DNA of 64,000 nucleotides from Bacteroidota bacterium (GCA_003249935.1 QKHT01000075.1:2602-66601); one strand, 5' to 3'; numbered from the stretch's first letter, positions 40,572-47,183 are shown. Program-made: numbers and translations. The notes: generated from the sequence alone by a model not told the origin.

Positions 40572-40612
40572 AAAAAGCTGCTTTGGGAAACCGGAGCAGC
40601 TTTTTTTGTTTT
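40572..40612. terminator. Rho-independent (probably bidirectional) terminator
   Basis: AAAAAGCTGCT pairs with AGCAGCTTTTT and is followed by a T-run. An A-run lies on the other side. Confidence 0.75.
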
Positions 40613-40721: not shown

Positions 40722-43067
40722 TCAGGGTACAATTTTTATGGCATCTACGGGGCATGCCGGGCGACAGGCATCGCACTTAATGCACTTTTCGGTATCGACC
40801 ATGTGCAGTTGATGCGGGTTGAATGCAATGGCATCTACCGGACAAACTTGGGCGCATTTGGTACAGCCGAAACAATCGCTGTTAATGGTGTACTTTATGA
40901 GTGCTTTGCATTTGCCGGTTGGACAAATGCCATTGATATGGGCCTCGTATTCGTTGCGGAAGTGCTTGAGCGTGGATAATACCGGATTTGGGGCACTTTT
41001 CCCAAGGCCGCATAGCGAGCCTTTTTTTGTCCATATCGCCAATTCTTCGAGTTTGGCAAGGTCTTCGGTTTTACCTTTACCTTCGGTAATCCGTTCGAGA
41101 ATTTCGAGCATGCGTTTGGTGCCTACGCGACAGAATGTGCATTTACCGCAGCTTTCGTTTTGAGTAAACGATAAAAAGTATCGGGCAATGTCCACCATGC
41201 AATCCGTGTCGTCCAATACAACCAATCCGCCCGAACCCATCATAGCACCCACGGCTCCGAGCGATTCGTAGTCAATTTGGGTGTCGGCCAGCCAATGAGG
41301 AACACAACCACCCGACGGGCCGCCAATTTGCACCGCTTTCAGGGTTCGGCCATTAGCCACACCACCGCCAATTTCATTCACCACTTCATTAATGGTAATC
41401 CCCATCGGTACTTCAATTAATCCACCCCGCGCAACTTTGCCGGCTAATGCAAACACTTTGGTTCCTTTGCTGCGATCAATGCCAATGGATGCAAATTTTT
41501 CGTACCCGTTACGGATAATATAAGGTACCTGAGCAAATGTTTCGGTATTGTTAATCAATGTAGGAAAACCAAACAATCCTTCCTTTGCCGGGTAGGGCGG
41601 CCGAATGTTCGGAAATCCGCGTTCACCCATAATCGAGGCCATAAGTGCCGTCTCTTCGCCACACACAAAAGCACCGGCTCCCTGATAAATAGAAACAGAA
41701 AGCGAAAATGGCGTATTCATTATGTTTGAACCAACGAGGTGGCGTTCGCGACAAATTTCCAATGCCTTACCGATGCGTTCTACTGCCAATGGATATTCGG
41801 CCCTGATATAGAAGATGGCTTCGGTTGCACCCACTGCATATGCTGCGATTAATAAACCTTCAACGACTCTGAAGGGGTACGATTCCAACAGCATACGATC
41901 CATAAATGCACCGGGATCGCCTTCGTCGCCATTGCAAATCAGGTATTTTATTGGCCCGGTACTTTCGGCCACCATTTGCCATTTGGTGCCTGTGGGAAAC
42001 CCCGCACCACCACGCCCGCGAAGGCCGCTACGTGAAATAGTTTCTATGGTGCTTTGGGTTGAACCATCATCAAGTACCTTTTTAAGTGCTTCGAAACCAC
42101 CGTTAGCAATATACTCGTCGATGTCTAACGGACTCATGTGCCCGCGATGTTCGGTTGCAATCGGTATCTGATGGCCAAGAAAAGCACTCACCTGTTTTTC
42201 GCGTACATCCGGATTATAGCGTTCTATGGCAATAGCCGAAGTGTCGGTTCTCACATTCTCCAATGTATCGGATAACCTCGAAGTGAGTCGTTGTAATAAT
42301 CCCGGCGACTTAAAATGCGAAGCCAGAATTTTACTCACATCCTCCGGTTTTACCTGCGTATAAAGGGTTGGTTCGCCCGTGGTGGGTACAATTTCTACCA
42401 AGGGAACGCGGTGACACATGCCTACACACCCCACGTTTTTAAGCGTTACGTTCAGGTGGCGTTTGGCAATAGCCGTTTCTGCGGCGCGTTGTATTTCGTC
42501 GCTGCCACTGGCTACACAGCACGATCCGAGGCCTATGCGTACTTCACCTTCAATGGTACTACCATCTGTTTTGCGAAACAATGGTGTATTCACTTCATCT
42601 TTTCTGCTTTCGAAATCGTTTATTATCGAAGCAATTTGTGCCGTAGTAACATGGCCGTAAGTCACTTTATCGATCTGAACCACCGGTGCCAGGGTACAAC
42701 AACCAAGGCAGCTCACTTTTTCGAGCGTGTAATTACCGGCTGCATCGGTGTCGGCCGATTCATTCATTTTAAAATGCCGTTTTAAAGCATCATAAACCTG
42801 CATGGCACCTTTTACATGGCAGGCGGTTCCTACACAAACCTTTACGAGGTGTTTGCCCGCCGGTTCATGTCTGAATTGCGAATAAAAAGTAGACACCCCG
42901 GTAATCTGATCGGGGGTAATTTCCGAAATGGAACAAACATGTTCAAGCGCCGCTTTGGGCAGGTAGTTGTATTTTTTTTGTATGGCCTGCAAAATGGGTA
43001 TCACCCTGTTTTTGGTTGAACCCGTTTCGGCCACTATTTGTGCAATATCGTTGAGATTTAGCTCCAT
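40722..43067 (-). CDS. NuoE-like [2Fe-2S], second thioredoxin-like [2Fe-2S], NuoF (FMN/NADH) and 2x[4Fe-4S] ferredoxin fusion (HydB/HndC-like NADH dehydrogenase module)
   Basis: CVGTACHVKG...CLGCC (NuoE), GLGSCCVASG...CVGMCH, GRGGAGFPTG and CNGDEGDPGAF (NuoF), ESCGKCTFCR, and C-terminal CFGCTKCAQVCP plus CIKCDACRPACP. Confidence 0.85.
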   Translation of the reverse strand: MELNLNDIAQIVAETGSTKNRVIPILQAIQKKYNYLPKAALEHVCSISEITPDQITGVSTFYSQFRHEPAGKHLVKVCVGTACHVKGAMQVYDALKRHFKMNESADTDAAGNYTLEKVSCLGCCTLAPVVQIDKVTYGHVTTAQIASIINDFESRKDEVNTPLFRKTDGSTIEGEVRIGLGSCCVASGSDEIQRAAETAIAKRHLNVTLKNVGCVGMCHRVPLVEIVPTTGEPTLYTQVKPEDVSKILASHFKSPGLLQRLTSRLSDTLENVRTDTSAIAIERYNPDVREKQVSAFLGHQIPIATEHRGHMSPLDIDEYIANGGFEALKKVLDDGSTQSTIETISRSGLRGRGGAGFPTGTKWQMVAESTGPIKYLICNGDEGDPGAFMDRMLLESYPFRVVEGLLIAAYAVGATEAIFYIRAEYPLAVERIGKALEICRERHLVGSNIMNTPFSLSVSIYQGAGAFVCGEETALMASIMGERGFPNIRPPYPAKEGLFGFPTLINNTETFAQVPYIIRNGYEKFASIGIDRSKGTKVFALAGKVARGGLIEVPMGITINEVVNEIGGGVANGRTLKAVQIGGPSGGCVPHWLADTQIDYESLGAVGAMMGSGGLVVLDDTDCMVDIARYFLSFTQNESCGKCTFCRVGTKRMLEILERITEGKGKTEDLAKLEELAIWTKKGSLCGLGKSAPNPVLSTLKHFRNEYEAHINGICPTGKCKALIKYTINSDCFGCTKCAQVCPVDAIAFNPHQLHMVDTEKCIKCDACRPACPVDAIKIVP

Positions 43068-43070
43068 CGG

Positions 43071-44870
43071 TTACTTTTTAATGCCAAATAGGGTGTTACC
43101 AGCTTTAATACACATAAAGCCATCGGCAAATGCCGGTGTTGTAAATACCTTGCCACCCATATCGTGTTCGGCTATTAATTCGAAGTTGTTGCCGGCTTTC
43201 ATAATGTGCATTGTTCCGCCCATGTCGGCCAAATATATTTTGCCATCGGCCAGTATTGGCGATGAGTAAAACCCTTCGCCAAAGTCGTTTTCCCAAAGCT
43301 TTTCGCCGTTAGTTTGGTCGTAGCAGGCTGCCATACCATACGATGTGGCTACAATTACCCAGTTGTCGGCAGCTAACGGGCTCGATACTTCGGCGAGATA
43401 TTCGCTCGACTCCCAGAGTTCGGAGGCGGTGCCGTTGGTTGGATTAATGGCTGCAAATTTAGCATATTCGTTTACGGCAAACACCTTACCGTTGGCATAA
43501 GCAGCCGATGGTCCGACTTCGCCGCTAAGTGAAGCGATTTTCCAGAGTTCTTTGCCACTTTCGGCATCGTATCCGGCCACCAAAGGGTCGGCCGTTAGTA
43601 CCAGTTGAACGGTGTTGTTTATTTTAGCAAGTATTGGCGACGACCACGAGATTTTTACGGCACGAACGGTTTCCCAAAGTTTTTCGCCGTTAAGCACATT
43701 AAATGCCAGCAGTTTACCGCCTTTACCGGTATCATACTGTACATACAATTTGTTTTCAAGCAGTTGTAACGATGATGAGTGGCCGTAATGATTGGTCGGT
43801 ACGCCGATGTTGATGGTCCATAGTGGTTCGCCATTTACTGTATATGCAGCCAAATCGCCTGTGGCAAAAATGGCGTAAACCCTTTGCCCATCGGTGGCTA
43901 AAGTGGGTGCGGATAGTCCTGTATCGTCGGTGACTTTTGGCGGTGAGGCCGGCGAGCCGGCTGCTTTTTCTATCTCTTTTTGCCATAGTATTTTGCCCGA
44001 ATTTTTGTCGATACAAAACAACGAACGTTTTTTTGCATCGGCACCCGCCACGAAAATTTTGCTATCCCAGATTATCGGCGAGTTAAATCCATGCAATGGT
44101 AACACTGTTTTCCATGCTATATTTTTTCCTGAAGCCACATCCCAATCGGTCGGTGTGTTTTTGGCGTAACTCACACCTTGCCCCCATGGCCCGCGAAACG
44201 TGGCGTGCTGCATTTTAAAATCAGCGAATGTTGCAAATCGCGGTTCAGCCACCTTAGCAACCGGTTCAGCCAGAATTACGGTGTCGGACTTGGCCGTGGT
44301 ATTGGTTGCACTGTCGGCATTGGTAACGGTAATCACCTCTACTTTTGGTTGTTCTTGTACAATGGTATCGGCTACAGCCAACATTGCTGGAGTGTTTTTG
44401 TAAGTGTCGAAATAGGTTTTGGAACCCATTACACCCCAAAGTGCTGCTAAAATAAGCAACAAGGCACCAATATTTATAGCCCTTTGAGTCTGTTTTTGTG
44501 TATCGCCAGTTGTCGTTTTTTCTTCGGGCTCGCCAATAATAGCAAAATGTTTGCTTAACCATCGCAAAGAGCCAAAGCAGACTATGCTACCAATAATAAG
44601 CAACAGTGCACCGGTATTGAGTTGCCATTGCGCCGTAAACCATGCTTTGCGGGCTATTAGGTCGAGATTGCGCACGGCCTCCATTAAATCGTGGTTGTTG
44701 GGGTCGTTCTTGAGTTGAGCCACAATGGACTCTAACGCTTTGTTTTCGACTGGGCTATGCGATTTTATCTGTATGTAATTTACAATAAGTAAAATGGCTA
44801 CGATAATAGAAAAAGCCCCGGATATACGGGCCACCCATTTTATGTTTTCAATTTTTTGTTCTTTCATCAC
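43071..44870 (-). CDS. Membrane-anchored PQQ-like (BamB-like) beta-propeller repeat protein
   Basis: Three N-terminal TM helices and a Thr/Ala-rich linker. These are followed by repeated G-K-x-L-W blades (GKILWQ, GEPLWT, GEKLWE, GKELWK, GEKLWE). Confidence 0.7.
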   Translation of the reverse strand: MMKEQKIENIKWVARISGAFSIIVAILLIVNYIQIKSHSPVENKALESIVAQLKNDPNNHDLMEAVRNLDLIARKAWFTAQWQLNTGALLLIIGSIVCFGSLRWLSKHFAIIGEPEEKTTTGDTQKQTQRAINIGALLLILAALWGVMGSKTYFDTYKNTPAMLAVADTIVQEQPKVEVITVTNADSATNTTAKSDTVILAEPVAKVAEPRFATFADFKMQHATFRGPWGQGVSYAKNTPTDWDVASGKNIAWKTVLPLHGFNSPIIWDSKIFVAGADAKKRSLFCIDKNSGKILWQKEIEKAAGSPASPPKVTDDTGLSAPTLATDGQRVYAIFATGDLAAYTVNGEPLWTINIGVPTNHYGHSSSLQLLENKLYVQYDTGKGGKLLAFNVLNGEKLWETVRAVKISWSSPILAKINNTVQLVLTADPLVAGYDAESGKELWKIASLSGEVGPSAAYANGKVFAVNEYAKFAAINPTNGTASELWESSEYLAEVSSPLAADNWVIVATSYGMAACYDQTNGEKLWENDFGEGFYSSPILADGKIYLADMGGTMHIMKAGNNFELIAEHDMGGKVFTTPAFADGFMCIKAGNTLFGIKK

Positions 44871-46150
44871 TCATTCGTTTTTGCAGGTATTTTTACCGGA
44901 CAATATTTAATGCAGCGGCCGCAACTCAAGCAATCGCCTTTATTCGGTGTATAATCGTTGGATTCGCGTCGCCTGAAAAGCCCGATTAAGGTGGTGCCAA
45001 TCACCAGTCCCATAAAACCGCCCAAAATGGTAGCTCCGGTTTTAAATTGCGGCATTATTTCGTTGGCCTTTTTTGTCAGGTTTTCGGCTGAACCACCACT
45101 GGCCACAAACGTACGAATATCGAGGTTGGCGGATGTTTTTAATATTTCAGGATTTTTGGTCATGAGGTTTGCCAGATATACATCGGGATGCGCGTTGGCC
45201 AATGCCGGATGCACCAAATAGCCGATGACGGCACCAAAAACAATAAAAATTGGGAGCATCAGTATATATCGGATAAACTTTTTTTGATTGATGGTTCGTT
45301 CTTTTTCTTTGCCGGTGGGCTTGTCAATGGCTTCGAACGGACACGATGATTCGCACAAACGGCAACTGATACATTCGGCAGGTGTTATAGCCATGTGCCG
45401 CCAGGCAAATTGTGAAATATGTTTGAGTAGTACGCCATACGGGCAAATAAACCGGCAATAGGGCCGTGCTACAACCATGCCGATAAGCAAAAGGCAAATG
45501 CCAATCATTACGATGGCAAAGGGCCCGTCGAGACGGTATATGGCAATAAAGGGATCGAACCGGCAAATAATAAAATCGCTGCCCGTAGCGGCATAAAGTA
45601 CCGCCAACCCAAGGTAGAGATACGGAAAAAGACCGAAGCTTTTTCGGGCCCAAAGGGGTATCTCTATGGGTTTTAAGATTAGTAAATCCTGAATGACGCC
45701 TAGTGGACAAGCCCCGGCGCAAAAGGTTCGACCGAAAAACAAGGCAAACAACAATGGCAGTAAAAAAAAGCCCAACGTAACCCACGAAATGGAATAAGCC
45801 GGCGAGGCAAATGCCAATGCTATATTTTGTATGGAACCTACTGAGCAAATGCAACCATGGCGCACGAAGCCAAACCATATTAACGAAAATAGTGACATGG
45901 CTAATATGCCTTTTCGCGACCGTTTTTTGAGCAGAAACCATGTGGTAAGGCCCAGAACTAAAGCTAAAATGCCCAGATCGAGCCACTGCATCGTCATGCC
46001 GCGTGGTTCGGGCGTAGTGGGTACCGGCTGGGTGTATCCGTTTTCGAATTCGGGCTTCGGAAAGCGTTGTATGCCTTGTGCAATTGCCGAAATGAATTGT
46101 GAACCAAATATCAGTATGGTTATAATGAAGTAATAAATACGGTTTTTCAT
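44867..46150 (-). CDS. NapH/MauN-like polytopic membrane iron-sulfur protein
   Basis: Signal-like N-terminus and multiple TM helices. It has CxxxCP motifs (FCAGACPLG, CRFICPYG) and two CxxCxxCxxxCP ferredoxin motifs (CISCRLCESSCP, CLSCGRCIKYCP). ATGA overlap with the downstream gene. Confidence 0.7.
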   Translation of the reverse strand: MKNRIYYFIITILIFGSQFISAIAQGIQRFPKPEFENGYTQPVPTTPEPRGMTMQWLDLGILALVLGLTTWFLLKKRSRKGILAMSLFSLIWFGFVRHGCICSVGSIQNIALAFASPAYSISWVTLGFFLLPLLFALFFGRTFCAGACPLGVIQDLLILKPIEIPLWARKSFGLFPYLYLGLAVLYAATGSDFIICRFDPFIAIYRLDGPFAIVMIGICLLLIGMVVARPYCRFICPYGVLLKHISQFAWRHMAITPAECISCRLCESSCPFEAIDKPTGKEKERTINQKKFIRYILMLPIFIVFGAVIGYLVHPALANAHPDVYLANLMTKNPEILKTSANLDIRTFVASGGSAENLTKKANEIMPQFKTGATILGGFMGLVIGTTLIGLFRRRESNDYTPNKGDCLSCGRCIKYCPVKIPAKTNE

Positions 46151-46152
46151 AA

Positions 46153-46722
46153 CTACTTTGAATCGGATTTCGGCAGTGAGCCTTTGATTTTGTATGGTTG
46201 CGAGGCAGGCACTCTACTGATGGCATCGGATGGGCAAACGCGGGCAATGGCGCATTGGTTGCAATTAACGCAAATATTATGGCGTATTTGTAAATGCAAC
46301 GATCCGTTGCCAAAGTCGGTGCAGCCTTTTACACATTTGGCACAGCCTATACACAATGGCTCGTCGATAACGTATTCGAAATAGGGCTCTTCGATGTATT
46401 TTCTGTTAATAGCGGCGGTGGGGCAGAGCTGACTTTCGGCTGCAGTGCTGATATTGGCATCAGGTTTCAAATAACCGCCGCAAAGGTCGCAATAACCGCA
46501 AACATCGTAGGCATGCACGCATTTTACTGCCGAAGGACGCAGTACGCAATCGGTAGCGCATCGGCCGCATTGGGTGCATTTAAACGGGTCTATTTGCCAC
46601 ACTGTACCTTCGGCTGTGGCATGTTTTGCAGCCATAATTGCTGTGGCACCAAGGGTTACCCCCAATGCTACACGGGTGCCGCTTTTGAAAAAGCCCCGTC
46701 GGTTGGTTTTATTTGCTGCCAT
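46153..46722 (-). CDS. Tat-exported NapG-like poly-ferredoxin (four Cys clusters)
   Basis: Twin-arginine signal NRRGFFKSG...AKHATA and Cys motifs CTQCGRCATDC, CGYCDLCGG, CIGCAKCVKGC and CVNCNQCAIARVCP. Confidence 0.75.
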   Translation of the reverse strand: MAANKTNRRGFFKSGTRVALGVTLGATAIMAAKHATAEGTVWQIDPFKCTQCGRCATDCVLRPSAVKCVHAYDVCGYCDLCGGYLKPDANISTAAESQLCPTAAINRKYIEEPYFEYVIDEPLCIGCAKCVKGCTDFGNGSLHLQIRHNICVNCNQCAIARVCPSDAISRVPASQPYKIKGSLPKSDSK

Positions 46723-46921
46723 GACGTAATGGTTGTGCCTGTGGTTTACTGCATGCTCTTAAAAATGAACATTTGGCGCATTCGGGTGCTTCGTCGCAAC
46801 CCGTAGCCGATACTTTGTCGGTTTTAACCATATACCACACCGCACCACCCAACAGCGCAAACAAGCTGGTGCGACCAATGGTATCTGCAAATTGTCGCCG
46901 ATTTATCTTTTTATTCCACAT
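46709..46921 (-). CDS. 70-aa protein with a Tat-like RRQF motif, one TM helix and a C-x5-C-x2-C-x5-C motif
   Basis: MWNKKINRRQFADTIGRTSLFALLGGAVWYMV...CDEAPECAKCSFLRAC. It is the first gene of the operon and overlaps the next gene by 14 nt. Confidence 0.5.
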   Translation of the reverse strand: MWNKKINRRQFADTIGRTSLFALLGGAVWYMVKTDKVSATGCDEAPECAKCSFLRACSKPQAQPLRHGSK

Positions 46922-46947: not shown

Positions 46948-46955
46948 CAAAAATA
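46948..46955 (-). promoter_or_regulatory. Candidate -7 box (TATTTTTG on the minus strand) for the redox operon
   Basis: CAAAAATA on the plus strand is the reverse complement of TAnnTTTG, about 27 nt upstream of the ATG at 46921. Confidence 0.35.
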
Positions 46956-47038: not shown

Positions 47039-47183
47039 TGCCTGCGGCGTTGATGGCCTTCGGCGTTTATGGCCTTCGGCGTTTATAGCCTTCGGCTGTT
47101 TATGGCCTTTGGCGTTGATGGCCTTTGGCGTTGATGGCCTATGGCGTTGATGGCCTGCGGCGTTGATGGCCTGCGGCGTTTAT
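47039..47183. repeat. Nine head-to-tail copies of a 16-bp unit (GGCCTNNGGCGTTKAT; one 17-bp unit)
   Basis: Units begin at 47039, 47055, 47071, 47087, 47104, 47120, 47136, 47152 and 47168. The variants are CTGCGG, CTTCGG, CTTTGG and CTATGG. There are no spacers between units. Confidence 0.95.

Follow-up and report, generated by a model that had tools for sequence, protein, structure and literature searches.

Five coupled genes of a Bacteroidota genome combine a fused Bfu-type flavoprotein with NapGH-like iron-sulfur proteins and a tethered propeller and may export electrons to the periplasm

What does a bacterium do with a gene block that encodes a cytoplasmic NAD(H) flavoprotein, a polytopic iron-sulfur protein, two small Cys-rich proteins, and a membrane-anchored beta-propeller? 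Such a block lies on the minus strand of a 64,000-nucleotide stretch from a Bacteroidota bacterium (GCA_003249935.1, QKHT01000075.1:2602-66601), which we refer to as the window. A preliminary description had presented it as a single operon linking a NuoEF-ferredoxin fusion to a PQQ-type propeller, with no recognizable terminal enzyme. The block and its flanks comprise the following features, the genes being ORF calls.

46948-46955, minus strand: promoter-like -7 motif TATTTTTG, 26 nt upstream of the first ATG
46709-46921, minus strand: Cys4 mini-protein gene, 70 aa, the first gene of the block
46153-46722, minus strand: NapG-like polyferredoxin gene, 189 aa
44867-46150, minus strand: NapH-like polytopic Fe-S protein gene, 427 aa
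43071-44870, minus strand: TM-propeller gene, 599 aa
40722-43067, minus strand: BfuC-BfuB fusion flavoprotein gene, 781 aa
40572-40605, no strand: palindromic hairpin with a 15-bp stem, flanked by an A-run and a T-run

The five ORFs and their junctions (in order, a 14-nt overlap, a 2-nt gap, a 4-nt overlap, and a 3-nt gap) were recovered as first described, and all of the motifs named for the five proteins were found again by sequence reading and Pfam/NCBIfam searches. The 4-nt overlap, between the 427-aa and 599-aa genes, assumes a GTG start; use of the next ATG would reduce it to 1 nt (TGATG). All five reading frames are intact, and the family-invariant Cys residues are all kept. The motif at 46948-46955 matches TAnnTTTG, which we take to be the Bacteroidota -7 promoter consensus. 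A sigma-70 scan returned sites no more commonly than in shuffled sequence, the sigma-70 model being unsuited to Bacteroidota. The hairpin is a candidate bidirectional terminator common to the block and a convergent OmpA-like gene. A defense island adjoins the block. Horizontal transfer of the block was considered: its GC3 (0.41 to 0.49) is above that of its unlinked partner genes (0.35 to 0.40), yet identities with Saccharicrinis, of the same family, are as high as those with any other lineage. Pfam and NCBIfam revealed no molybdopterin, hydrogenase, formate dehydrogenase, or dehalogenase domain in the five proteins, and the CxxCH heme motif is absent from all five and from all nine system proteins scanned. 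The statement that no terminal enzyme can be recognized therefore stands.

The flavoprotein carries an N-terminal NuoE-like (BfuC) domain (residues 1 to 160; 2Fe-2S_thioredx at 9 to 152, E = 1.7e-49), a second [2Fe-2S] domain at about 176 to 260 (2Fe-2S ferredoxin models match 182 to 261), a NuoF-like FMN/NAD(H) and [4Fe-4S] core at about 300 to 710 (Complex1_51K, 1.2e-42, and NADH_4Fe-4S, 2.1e-33, full profiles covered), and a C-terminal 2x[4Fe-4S] domain with two CxxCxxCxxxCP motifs (Fer4_21 at 730 to 778). All domains of the supposed NuoEF-ferredoxin fusion are thus present. However, a generic NuoEF/HydB module it is not, since its closest solved relatives are NfnB and StnB. The best PDB match was NfnB (9n5u_B, E = 2e-206), followed by 9bov_B (1e-204), 8oh5_B (8e-196), and then HydB chains, and residues 175 to 779 align with residues 2 to 594 of NfnB, StnB, and HydB (2e-206 to 1e-162). 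The N-terminal [2Fe-2S] and C-terminal 2x[4Fe-4S] domains of this B part are both absent from NuoF. By its sequence, the protein is a BfuC-BfuB fusion, a core of the Nfn/Stn/Hyd type within the electron-bifurcating Bfu family.

The likeness to NfnABC and StnABC (PDB 9n5u, 9bov, and 8oh5; PMC12018979, PMC11829005, and PMC9304861) extends end to end over residues 175 to 779 (E of ~1e-200) and takes in the N-terminal [2Fe-2S] domain, the FMN/NAD(H) core, the C-terminal 2x[4Fe-4S] domain, the NuoE-like C subunit, and a GltD-type NfnA-like subunit, which is encoded in the genome and adjacent in relatives. In contrast to those soluble three-gene enzymes, the C and B subunits are fused here, the genes sit among those for membrane and exported proteins, and the ferredoxin partner is not encoded. 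No ferredoxin gene was found in the cluster; the NapH-like protein supplies a predicted cytoplasmic two-cluster domain. A BfuA-type third subunit is likewise not in the operon, and the NfnA-like gene (511 aa) lies on another contig. Its product aligns with NfnA and StnC over their N-terminal ~290 residues (E of 1e-57 to 1e-65), but NfnA-like proteins (~510 aa) are without the formate-dehydrogenase-like domain of NfnA (963 to 1178 aa). In 52 of 59 related loci, the NfnA-like gene adjoins the Bfu core. Since it is unlinked here, bifurcation may not apply to the operon.

The 427-aa protein has a signal-like segment and about seven TM helices according to hydropathy and the positive-inside rule. 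Two CX3CP motifs (CxxxCP; C144/148 and C232/236) and a split 2x[4Fe-4S] domain (CxxCxxCxxxCP at C260-270 and C407-417) are predicted to be cytoplasmic, and three more invariant Cys residues (C100, C102, and C196) are predicted to lie at the periplasmic face; the family has 15 invariant Cys in 57 sequences. The architecture of NapH and MauN (polytopic, with two CX3CP and two predicted cytoplasmic [4Fe-4S] motifs) is present, and Fer4_5 was matched in Pfam. Membership in the NapH/MauN family was rejected, with curated scores far below the cutoffs (TIGR02163, 49.5 bits versus 213; NF007013, 45.4 versus 234). Database names of its homologs are generic only ("4Fe-4S binding," "NosR/NirI," and "ferredoxin"). 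The 189-aa protein begins with an RRGFF Tat signal ending in ATA and has 17 invariant Cys, one more than four [4Fe-4S] sites would require, so that both the Tat signal and the four [4Fe-4S] motifs of the NapG/MauM type are present. It matches generic ferredoxin HMMs only, the NapG family model being absent among the hits listed, and "NapG-like" accordingly denotes architectural likeness rather than a family score. The original naming of the pair after NapG and NapH is thus apt for the architecture but not for the family scores. Neither protein has a close solved relative beyond generic ferredoxin motifs.

NapGH and NosGH are the ferredoxin pairs of the periplasmic nitrate reductase and the clade II N2O reductase, respectively, and their electrons flow outward, to enzymes of the periplasm. 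Within the Nap pair, NapH serves as the membrane subunit of a quinol dehydrogenase. As in NapGH, NosGH, and MauMN, a Tat-exported four-cluster ferredoxin is paired here with a polytopic protein bearing two CX3CP and two CxxCxxCxxxCP motifs, presumably in the service of a periplasmic partner. In contrast to NapH and MauN, the present protein has extra TM helices, a ferredoxin domain interrupted by a 2-TM insertion, and three additional invariant Cys, in GCxC and CRxDPF. NapA, NosZ, and MauAB are lacking, and the predicted electron source is the cytoplasmic flavoprotein, not quinol. Membership in the NapAB/NapGH quinol dehydrogenase was rejected because a NapA-type molybdopterin protein is absent from the operon; the conserved gene families of the 59 related loci showed no molybdopterin protein either.

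The quinol-dehydrogenase role of NapH raises the possibility of a FixABCX-like quinone-coupled bifurcation. The NapH-like protein would then be a quinone reductase or quinol dehydrogenase, BfuCB and the NfnA-like subunit would use menaquinone as the high-potential acceptor to generate a cytoplasmic low-potential reductant, and the periplasmic parts would do no more than tap the quinol pool. The genome is that of a fermenter, with ferredoxin-using HydABC-like clusters, and quinone-linked and membrane-bound Bfu enzymes have been predicted by Schut et al. (PMC9304861). However, the NapH family model scores far under its cutoff, and the three periplasmic-face Cys, the Tat ferredoxin, the Cys4 peptide, and the four to six conserved propellers would be superfluous. 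That the system almost always occurs together with periplasmic and export parts speaks for the periplasmic branch as its purpose, and we regard the quinone-coupled scheme as unlikely.

The 599-aa protein consists of three hydrophobic TM helices, a low-complexity linker at about 150 to 210, and an eight-bladed PQQ_2 propeller at about 220 to 599 (Pfam PQQ_2, 3.5e-29). A juxtamembrane helix is conserved (R67, D70, L71, R74, K75, W82, and Q83; alignments A1 and A2), and N360-H-Y-G-H-S-S-S367, D316-T-G318, E451, E468-Y469, and E494 are near-invariant. Judging from blade periodicity, the invariant propeller residues probably cluster in the central funnel. The AlphaFold2 model had a pLDDT of 83, and the best Foldseek matches were BamB, tetrathionate hydrolase, and YxaL (E of 1e-18 to 4e-20; TM-score of 0.6 to 0.8 on the target), eight-bladed PQQ_2 propellers without PQQ. 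The tethered propeller has their fold but differs in sequence (14 to 19% identity), in gene context, in having a 3-TM anchor where they are lipoproteins or soluble, and in its own invariant motifs (NHYGHSSS and others). The label "PQQ-type" can therefore be kept for the fold, which is BamB/PQQ_2-like, but not for function, since a PQQ-dependent dehydrogenase was rejected (TIGR03075, 52.2 bits versus a cutoff of 480). BamB was also rejected (equivalog TIGR03300, 82.8 versus 285 bits; 3-TM anchor, lipobox absent). PqqC (TIGR02111) had no match in the 97.5%-complete genome, and control genomes likewise gave none. As to whether the propeller binds PQQ or a metal, profile and structure searches identified no redox cofactor site in the propellers, with no heme motif and no PQQ-dehydrogenase signature. 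The tethered propeller has only four Cys, and both members of a consensus pair that is near-invariant in relatives (C447/C596) are missing from the present copy. Such joint loss is expected of a disulfide and, together with the Tat signal of the NapG-like protein and the positive-inside topology, supports a periplasmic placement.

Related loci were compared in a synteny set of 59, each longer than 15 kb. The array order is fixed: propellers, NHL protein, mini-protein, NapG-like, NapH-like, TM-propeller, BfuCB, and NfnA-like. BfuCB is present in all 59 loci, the NapH-like and NHL proteins in 56 each, and the NapG-like and NfnA-like proteins in 52 each, all on one strand and with about 4.8 propellers per locus. 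Because the gene order recurs on one strand in 52 to 59 of the 59 loci, the arrangement is not due to chance, and the genes are co-conserved. The order is also kept in loci from Planctomycetota and in other metagenome loci. The propeller is carried by at least 592 species genomes, and carriers are patchy within the order (27 of 151 sampled genomes). The five genes are the spine of a core array of 9 to 10 genes that is contiguous in relatives and split up here; their fixed partners are three to four additional PQQ_2 propellers, an NHL propeller in which GCCNP is invariant, and the NfnA-like NADPH subunit. The single operon first proposed is thus a co-conserved unit but a fragment of this array, not a complete system. 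No homologous cluster assigned to a characterized complex was found, in keeping with the earlier view that the combination maps to no characterized pathway, and our literature search found no paper describing the five-gene combination or the envelope system; a paper on Caldithrix names such components, but apart from one another. In the present genome, the parts are distributed over contigs as follows.

C197: the five genes of the present window
C199: two propellers, the NHL protein, and the NfnA-like gene
C139: two additional propellers
C3: a propeller of a fourth class, alongside a glycosyltransferase and a MacB-type ABC transporter
C288: a squalene-hopene-cyclase (SHC)-like terpenoid cassette

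The breakup left the five spine genes side by side and still translationally coupled. A block severed from its cluster by rearrangement might be a decaying or functionless remnant, and the split array, the position beside the defense island, the higher GC3, and the two lost near-invariant Cys of the propeller could all be read in this way. However, the five frames are intact and coupled, the invariant Cys are kept (15 in the NapH-like protein, 17 in the NapG-like protein, and 4 in the mini-protein), as are the propeller motifs, every partner module is intact elsewhere in the genome, and a promoter-like motif and a putative terminator flank the block. Decay is thus highly improbable.

The mini-protein has an N-terminal NRRQF, a hydrophobic stretch that would serve as a signal or an anchor, and a C-x5-C-x2-C-x5-C motif (C42, C48, C51, and C57) whose four Cys are invariant across 37 aligned homologs; relatives have LPxA after this motif. 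It had no match in Pfam or NCBIfam. Judging from a V-S-A site, it may be cleaved to leave about 30 aa. The N-terminal motif, N-R-[RK]-x-F, has RR here and in a minority of relatives but RK in most, and Tat export of the mini-protein with a cofactor is therefore uncertain. In the NHL protein, GCCNP contains the only invariant Cys. Fold searches with it returned generic NHL propellers only (e.g., TRIM2/3 and Brat), and no domain fusions were found in the best 150 (178 to 391 aa) of 269 clusters (E of ≤1e-30; 1.8 billion representatives searched), so no Rosetta-stone clue was obtained. These Cys residues could form a thiol-disulfide relay, in which electrons would pass from cytoplasmic Fe-S clusters to the Cys pairs of the NapH-like protein, in DsbD style to its periplasmic-face Cys, and on to the vicinal Cys of the NHL protein and the Cys4 peptide, with a disulfide, a persulfide, or a soft metal being reduced. 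The seven invariant non-ferredoxin Cys of the NapH-like protein, divided between the membrane faces, are consistent with such a relay, as are the invariant GCCNP and the four invariant Cys of the mini-protein. However, it would need neither a periplasmic four-cluster ferredoxin nor, for disulfide reduction, a low-potential donor of the Bfu type, and no thioredoxin-fold partner occurs among the conserved cluster genes of related loci. We consider it quite unlikely.

Co-occurrence was examined in 151 sampled genomes of the order, 27 carriers and 124 noncarriers, which yield counts that are not phylogenetically independent. The propeller class found beside the glycosyltransferase and ABC transporter on C3 is present in 26 of the 27 carriers and in none of the 124 noncarriers, apart from 2 weak partial matches. 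The SHC-like cyclase is present in 9 of 27 carriers versus 0 of 124 noncarriers (Fisher P of ~5e-8), and it adjoins the array in two genomes (G026 and G158). The terpenoid cassette is missing from two-thirds of the carriers, including Saccharicrinis of the same family. By co-occurrence, the array is tied to the propeller/glycosyltransferase/ABC module and, in some lineages, to the terpenoid cassette.

The architecture (a cytoplasmic NAD(H) flavoprotein, a polytopic Fe-S protein, a Tat ferredoxin, and a predicted periplasmic propeller) fits the transmembrane electron conduit proposed in the preliminary description. We think it reasonably probable that the five genes are the electron-transfer spine of a widespread envelope redox system for NAD(P)H-driven electron export to the periplasm; the direction of flow and a catalytic role for the propeller are what we infer. 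Electrons would enter from NADPH at the NfnA-like subunit, with NAD(H) at the FMN of BfuCB, and the low-potential branch would exit via the C-terminal 2x[4Fe-4S] domain of BfuCB, as in NfnABC. This domain may dock on the cytoplasmic split 2x[4Fe-4S] domain of the NapH-like protein, replacing a soluble ferredoxin. In NapH-type proteins, there are about 30 Å of membrane to cross. Crossing could proceed via the four cytoplasmic-face CX3CP Cys and the three periplasmic-face Cys of the NapH-like protein or via a lipid carrier, and the electrons would then reach the Tat-exported four-cluster ferredoxin and the Cys4 mini-protein, both of which the propeller protein would hold at the membrane through its 3-TM anchor and conserved juxtamembrane helix. 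The electrons may finally drive a reduction in or close to the conserved central funnel of the tethered propeller, a step that would also involve the paralogous propellers and the NHL protein. Based on co-occurrence, the substrate would be a lipid or glycolipid of the envelope on which the linked glycosyltransferase and MacB-type ABC module act, and in a third of the sampled carriers it may be a cyclic terpenoid.

The sequence itself fixes neither direction of flow, and Bfu enzymes are reversible (PMC9304861; PMC12018979). Electrons could thus run inward, the propellers or the NHL protein oxidizing a low-potential donor and passing electrons through the NapG-like and NapH-like proteins to Bfu, for confurcation with NADH to NADPH or for NAD+ reduction. 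That tetrathionate hydrolase, a sulfur-compound enzyme, is among the closest structural relatives of the propeller is compatible with this. However, the periplasmic parts contain no recognizable oxidizing cofactor (heme, Mo, Cu, or PQQ signature), the known NapGH and NosGH relatives are outward donors, and the linked modules (glycosyltransferase, ABC transporter, and terpenoid cassette) serve biosynthesis and export, not substrate uptake. Inward flow therefore appears doubtful. For outward flow, we tentatively suggest a more specific version, which is possible but less than probable: a bifurcating cytoplasmic module would send very low-potential electrons via the Fe-S proteins to cofactor-poor propellers, which would use them for the chemical reduction or remodeling of an envelope lipid during its extraction by a MacB-type ABC transporter, this lipid being a cyclic terpenoid glycolipid in some lineages. 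If true, this would be a bifurcation-driven reductase of the periplasm, the first of its kind, and PQQ_2 and NHL propellers would gain a new role.

To our knowledge, little is understood of NapH-type membrane ferredoxins. Most of what is known of flavin-based electron bifurcation comes from soluble cytoplasmic enzymes, and Bfu complexes bound to the membrane exist so far as predictions only (PMC9304861). Here, one conserved cluster combines a Bfu core, a NapGH-like conduit, and exported propellers, and the species that carry it, among Bacteroidota, Planctomycetota, and other phyla, number in the hundreds. This implies an unrecognized use of low-potential electrons outside the cytoplasm. The breakup of the array in the present genome is a natural dissection, and the retention of the five electron-transfer genes together marks them as the functional core of the system. 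The near-obligate partnership with the glycosyltransferase/ABC module, and the terpenoid cyclase partnership nested within it, point to undescribed envelope-lipid biology.

The five minus-strand genes at 40722-46921, here called the spine, appear in the ORF listing with the junctions reported in the preliminary description (a 14-nt overlap, a 2-nt gap, a 4-nt overlap, and a 3-nt gap). The third junction, GAGTGATGAAA, overlaps as GTGA, or as TGATG if the next ATG is taken as the start. Upstream of the block, TATTTTTG matches the Bacteroidota -7 consensus. The hairpin downstream is a candidate terminator for both the spine operon and a convergent OmpA-like gene.

Features of the spine operon in the window (genes from the ORF listing)
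46955-46948, TATTTTTG, candidate promoter -7 element, 26 nt upstream of the first ATG of the block
46709-46921, minus strand, mini-protein gene (70 aa)
46153-46722, minus strand, NapG-like gene (189 aa)
44867-46150, minus strand, NapH-like gene (427 aa)
43071-44870, minus strand, tethered propeller gene (599 aa)
40722-43067, minus strand, BfuCB gene (781 aa)
40572-40605, palindromic hairpin, 15 bp, with an A-run and a T-run at its flanks

The spine operon is one piece of a larger array that relatives conserve. The array order, derived from one Bacteroidota genome, one Planctomycetaceae MAG, and two further metagenome loci, is two to three PQQ_2 propellers, a 320- to 375-aa TM-anchored protein, the mini-protein, the NapG-like and NapH-like proteins, the TM-propeller (doubled in some), BfuCB, and a 510- to 545-aa Fer2_4 plus GltD-type protein. 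When one genome was scanned for each GTDB species, at least 592 of them encoded the propeller. Among 59 fetched loci, each >15 kb, BfuCB was present in 59, the NapH-like and 320-aa proteins in 56 each, and the GltD-type protein in 52, with about 4.8 propellers per locus and a single strand used throughout. The co-conservation of the five genes, on which the preliminary description had made its reading depend, held across these loci, from 52 (NapG-like) to 59 (BfuCB). The five genes are very probably the spine of a conserved system; a rival reading, a dead remnant operon, is improbable.

Features of the system on contigs of this genome (C numbers, contigs; L numbers, fetched stretches of them)
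C197 (the window), 40722-46921, spine, five genes
C199, L013 4524-8115, two propellers and the NHL gene
C199, between the NHL and NfnA-like genes, four unrelated genes (DUF1599, MauE/DoxX-like, tpiA, and a 1221-aa protein)
C199, L013 14740-16275, NfnA-like (GltD-type) gene
C139, L118 1863-4325, two further propellers
C3, L119 4050-10377, fourth propeller class (401 aa), GT4 glycosyltransferase, ABC ATPase, and 1055-aa double-FtsX (MacB-type) permease
C288, L117 273-6534, 4Fe-4S protein, radical SAM, DUF116-polyprenyl synthase fusion, prenyltransferase-like protein, and squalene-hopene-cyclase (SHC)-like protein

The four unrelated genes on C199 occupy precisely the position of the spine in relatives, and in same-family genomes the array is contiguous, with most partner genes together. 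The split in this genome is genuine and no assembly artefact, because C197 and C199 each continue through the break points. One gene at the spine position encodes a 412-aa MauE/DoxX-domain membrane protein (L013 8743-9981). MauE functions in methylamine dehydrogenase maturation, and the link of the 412-aa protein to it may be coincidental. The G+C content of the five-gene block is 47% versus 40% for the whole window, and its GC3 is 0.41 to 0.49 versus 0.35 to 0.40 for the unlinked partners (NHL, NfnA-like, and propellers), whose values resemble the remaining genome. Replacement of the block by a foreign copy is possible, though its identities to same-family Saccharicrinis are no lower than those to other lineages. 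A tandem array of about nine 16-bp units (47039-47183) separates a Card1-like gene from the redox operon's promoter region. Sitting at the edge of the translocated block, it could serve regulation or recombination.

The 781-aa BfuCB protein consists, from N to C terminus, of a NuoE-like 2Fe-2S_thioredx domain (9-152), a second [2Fe-2S] domain (about 176-260), Complex1_51K, NADH_4Fe-4S, and a Fer4_21 domain with two CxxCxxCxxxCP motifs. Against all PDB sequences, residues 175-779 aligned over their full length with Thermococcus sibiricus NfnB (9n5u_B, E 2e-206), followed by 9bov chain B (1e-204), StnB (8oh5_B, 8e-196), and several HydB chains, whereas plain NuoF chains reached only about 1e-100. 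The protein is therefore a fusion of the C and B core subunits that define the electron-bifurcating Bfu family (PMC9304861). A complex-I N-module identity was ruled out by the far weaker NuoF matches; the domain order of the NuoEF-ferredoxin fusion described earlier stands, but its generic NuoEF identity does not. The GltD-type partner aligns with NfnA and StnC over their first ~290 residues (E 1e-57 to 1e-65) and has no counterpart of the formate-dehydrogenase-like domain found in both. Two further HydB/HydC/HydA-like gene sets in this genome (C101:17674-21710 and C221:19068-21354) suggest clusters of the [FeFe]-hydrogenase type, either bifurcating or NAD(P)-linked, in keeping with an anaerobe that ferments and runs a ferredoxin economy.

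The NapH-like protein matched Fer4_5 in the profile search but scored only 49.5 bits with the NapH/MauN model, below its cut-off of 213. Fifteen cysteines are invariant among 57 homologues: the CX3CP pairs 144/148 and 232/236, the ferredoxin motifs at 260-270 and 407-417, C100 and C102 in GCxC, and C196 in IICRxDPF. We know of no counterpart of C100, C102, and C196 in E. coli NapH. In NapH, the CX3CP and ferredoxin motifs lie on the cytoplasmic side. Hydropathy and the positive-inside rule gave a signal-like segment plus seven helices if the weaker segment 173-189 counts; the CX3CP and ferredoxin motifs are predicted to be cytoplasmic and C100, C102, and C196 to lie at the periplasmic face. 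The ferredoxin half-motifs have two helices and an outside loop of 60 aa between them and must pair up to give one two-cluster domain. A second, distant NapH-like gene is found on contig C306 of the same genome. The 189-aa NapG-like protein has a classical Tat signal (RRGFF...ATA) and 17 invariant cysteines, and generic ferredoxin models were its sole matches in the profile search. The Fe-S motifs behind the names NapH-like and NapG-like thus stand, but family membership does not follow from the scores. The mini-protein carries N-R-[RK]-x-F (the RR form in a minority), a 15-residue hydrophobic stretch, a V-S-A site, C-x5-C-x2-C-x5-C, and LPxA, with all four cysteines invariant in 37 sequences. 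A thiol relay is an unlikely rival to Fe-S electron transfer.

In the 599-aa protein, three TM helices are followed by a linker of low complexity and then the PQQ_2 propeller; the helix between TM1 and TM2 is strongly conserved (R67, D70, L71, R74, K75, W82, and Q83). Its AlphaFold2 model (mean pLDDT 83, >90 across most of the propeller) has eight four-stranded blades, and the top Foldseek matches were BamB, Acidithiobacillus tetrathionate hydrolase, and YxaL at 14 to 19% identity. Family models for PQQ dehydrogenase and BamB remained far under cut-off; the membrane-anchored propeller noted previously is retained, but the label PQQ-type applies to its fold alone. In successive blades, near-invariant polar residues directly precede the innermost strand (D316-T-G, N360-H-Y-G-H-S-S-S, E451, E468-Y469, and E494) and are predicted to line the central funnel. 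Consensus Cys 447 and Cys 596, near-invariant in 95 homologues, are both missing from the window copy (43071-44870). Their joint loss suggests a dispensable disulfide, which would fit an oxidising, periplasmic location of the propeller. A TM-anchored 499-aa propeller class (L013 5654-7153 and relatives) is very strongly conserved, with the polar motifs LGEGH, KRNHGMSRT, WYTGQCP, MSHxS, AGYGAG, EQQTP, and RFGLGP; its NH-G-x-S echoes NHYGHSSS of the tethered propeller, suggesting related sites. The 320-aa array protein is a six-bladed NHL propeller (TRIM2/3 NHL E 1e-8; model pLDDT 90; Foldseek) in which GCCNP is invariant and no other cysteine is.

Co-occurrence was scored in 151 genomes drawn evenly from the order, all with a completeness of 90% or more. 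Of these, 27 carried the tethered propeller, and 26 of the carriers had the fourth propeller class (E<=1e-58), of which the 124 non-carriers showed none save two weak partial matches. No Pfam match is on record for the L001 homologue of this class. The propeller/glycosyltransferase/ABC block, in which the GT4 glycosyltransferase on C3 has an N-terminal CxxC, comes after the array in 42 of the 59 loci and behaves as a system component. Orthologues of the SHC-like cyclase occurred in nine genomes of eight families (9/27 carriers versus 0/124 non-carriers; Fisher's p about 5e-8, with kin in the sample not independent), and the cyclase adjoins the array in two genomes. The terpenoid cassette is an optional extra, absent from the 124 sampled genomes that lack the system. 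The system itself is patchy in the family and order, and is missing from a closed genome of the same family. Its carriers include the cultivable Draconibacterium sediminis, Mariniphaga anaerophila DSM 26910, Maribellus spp., and Saccharicrinis spp.

Among known systems, the cytoplasmic part is closest to NfnABC/StnABC, the conduit to NapGH/NosGH/MauMN, and the propeller fold to BamB/tetrathionate hydrolase; none of them combines a Bfu core, conduit, and propeller. Scores for NapH, BamB, and PQQ dehydrogenases stayed below the family cut-offs, public annotations of the system proteins are generic, and full-text literature searches did not find a description of the system. It appears new relative to the searched literature. 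Its nearest known kind is the NapGH-type Fe-S conduit that serves a periplasmic partner, but the chance is substantial that the machine as a whole belongs to a new category. As reported before, no known terminal enzyme is present in the five-gene operon.

NfnA is the entry point for NADPH in NfnABC, and NAD(H) binds at the FMN flavobicluster of NfnB. Unlike NfnABC, with its separate ferredoxin partner, the system encodes no ferredoxin gene here; the cytoplasmic two-cluster domain of the NapH-like protein would take its place. Electrons would then cross to the Tat-exported four-cluster NapG-like ferredoxin and be consumed at the membrane-tethered propeller and its partners. Outward flow from NAD(P)H to the periplasm is slightly favoured; the rivals, inward flow and a quinone-coupled bifurcating enzyme, are less likely. 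That a propeller is the catalytic end point is a tentative proposal. A Bfu-type donor suggests that the periplasmic step requires a potential below that of NAD(P)H alone, and the modules linked to the system (glycosyltransferase, ABC, and terpenoid) point to an envelope lipid as the probable substrate.
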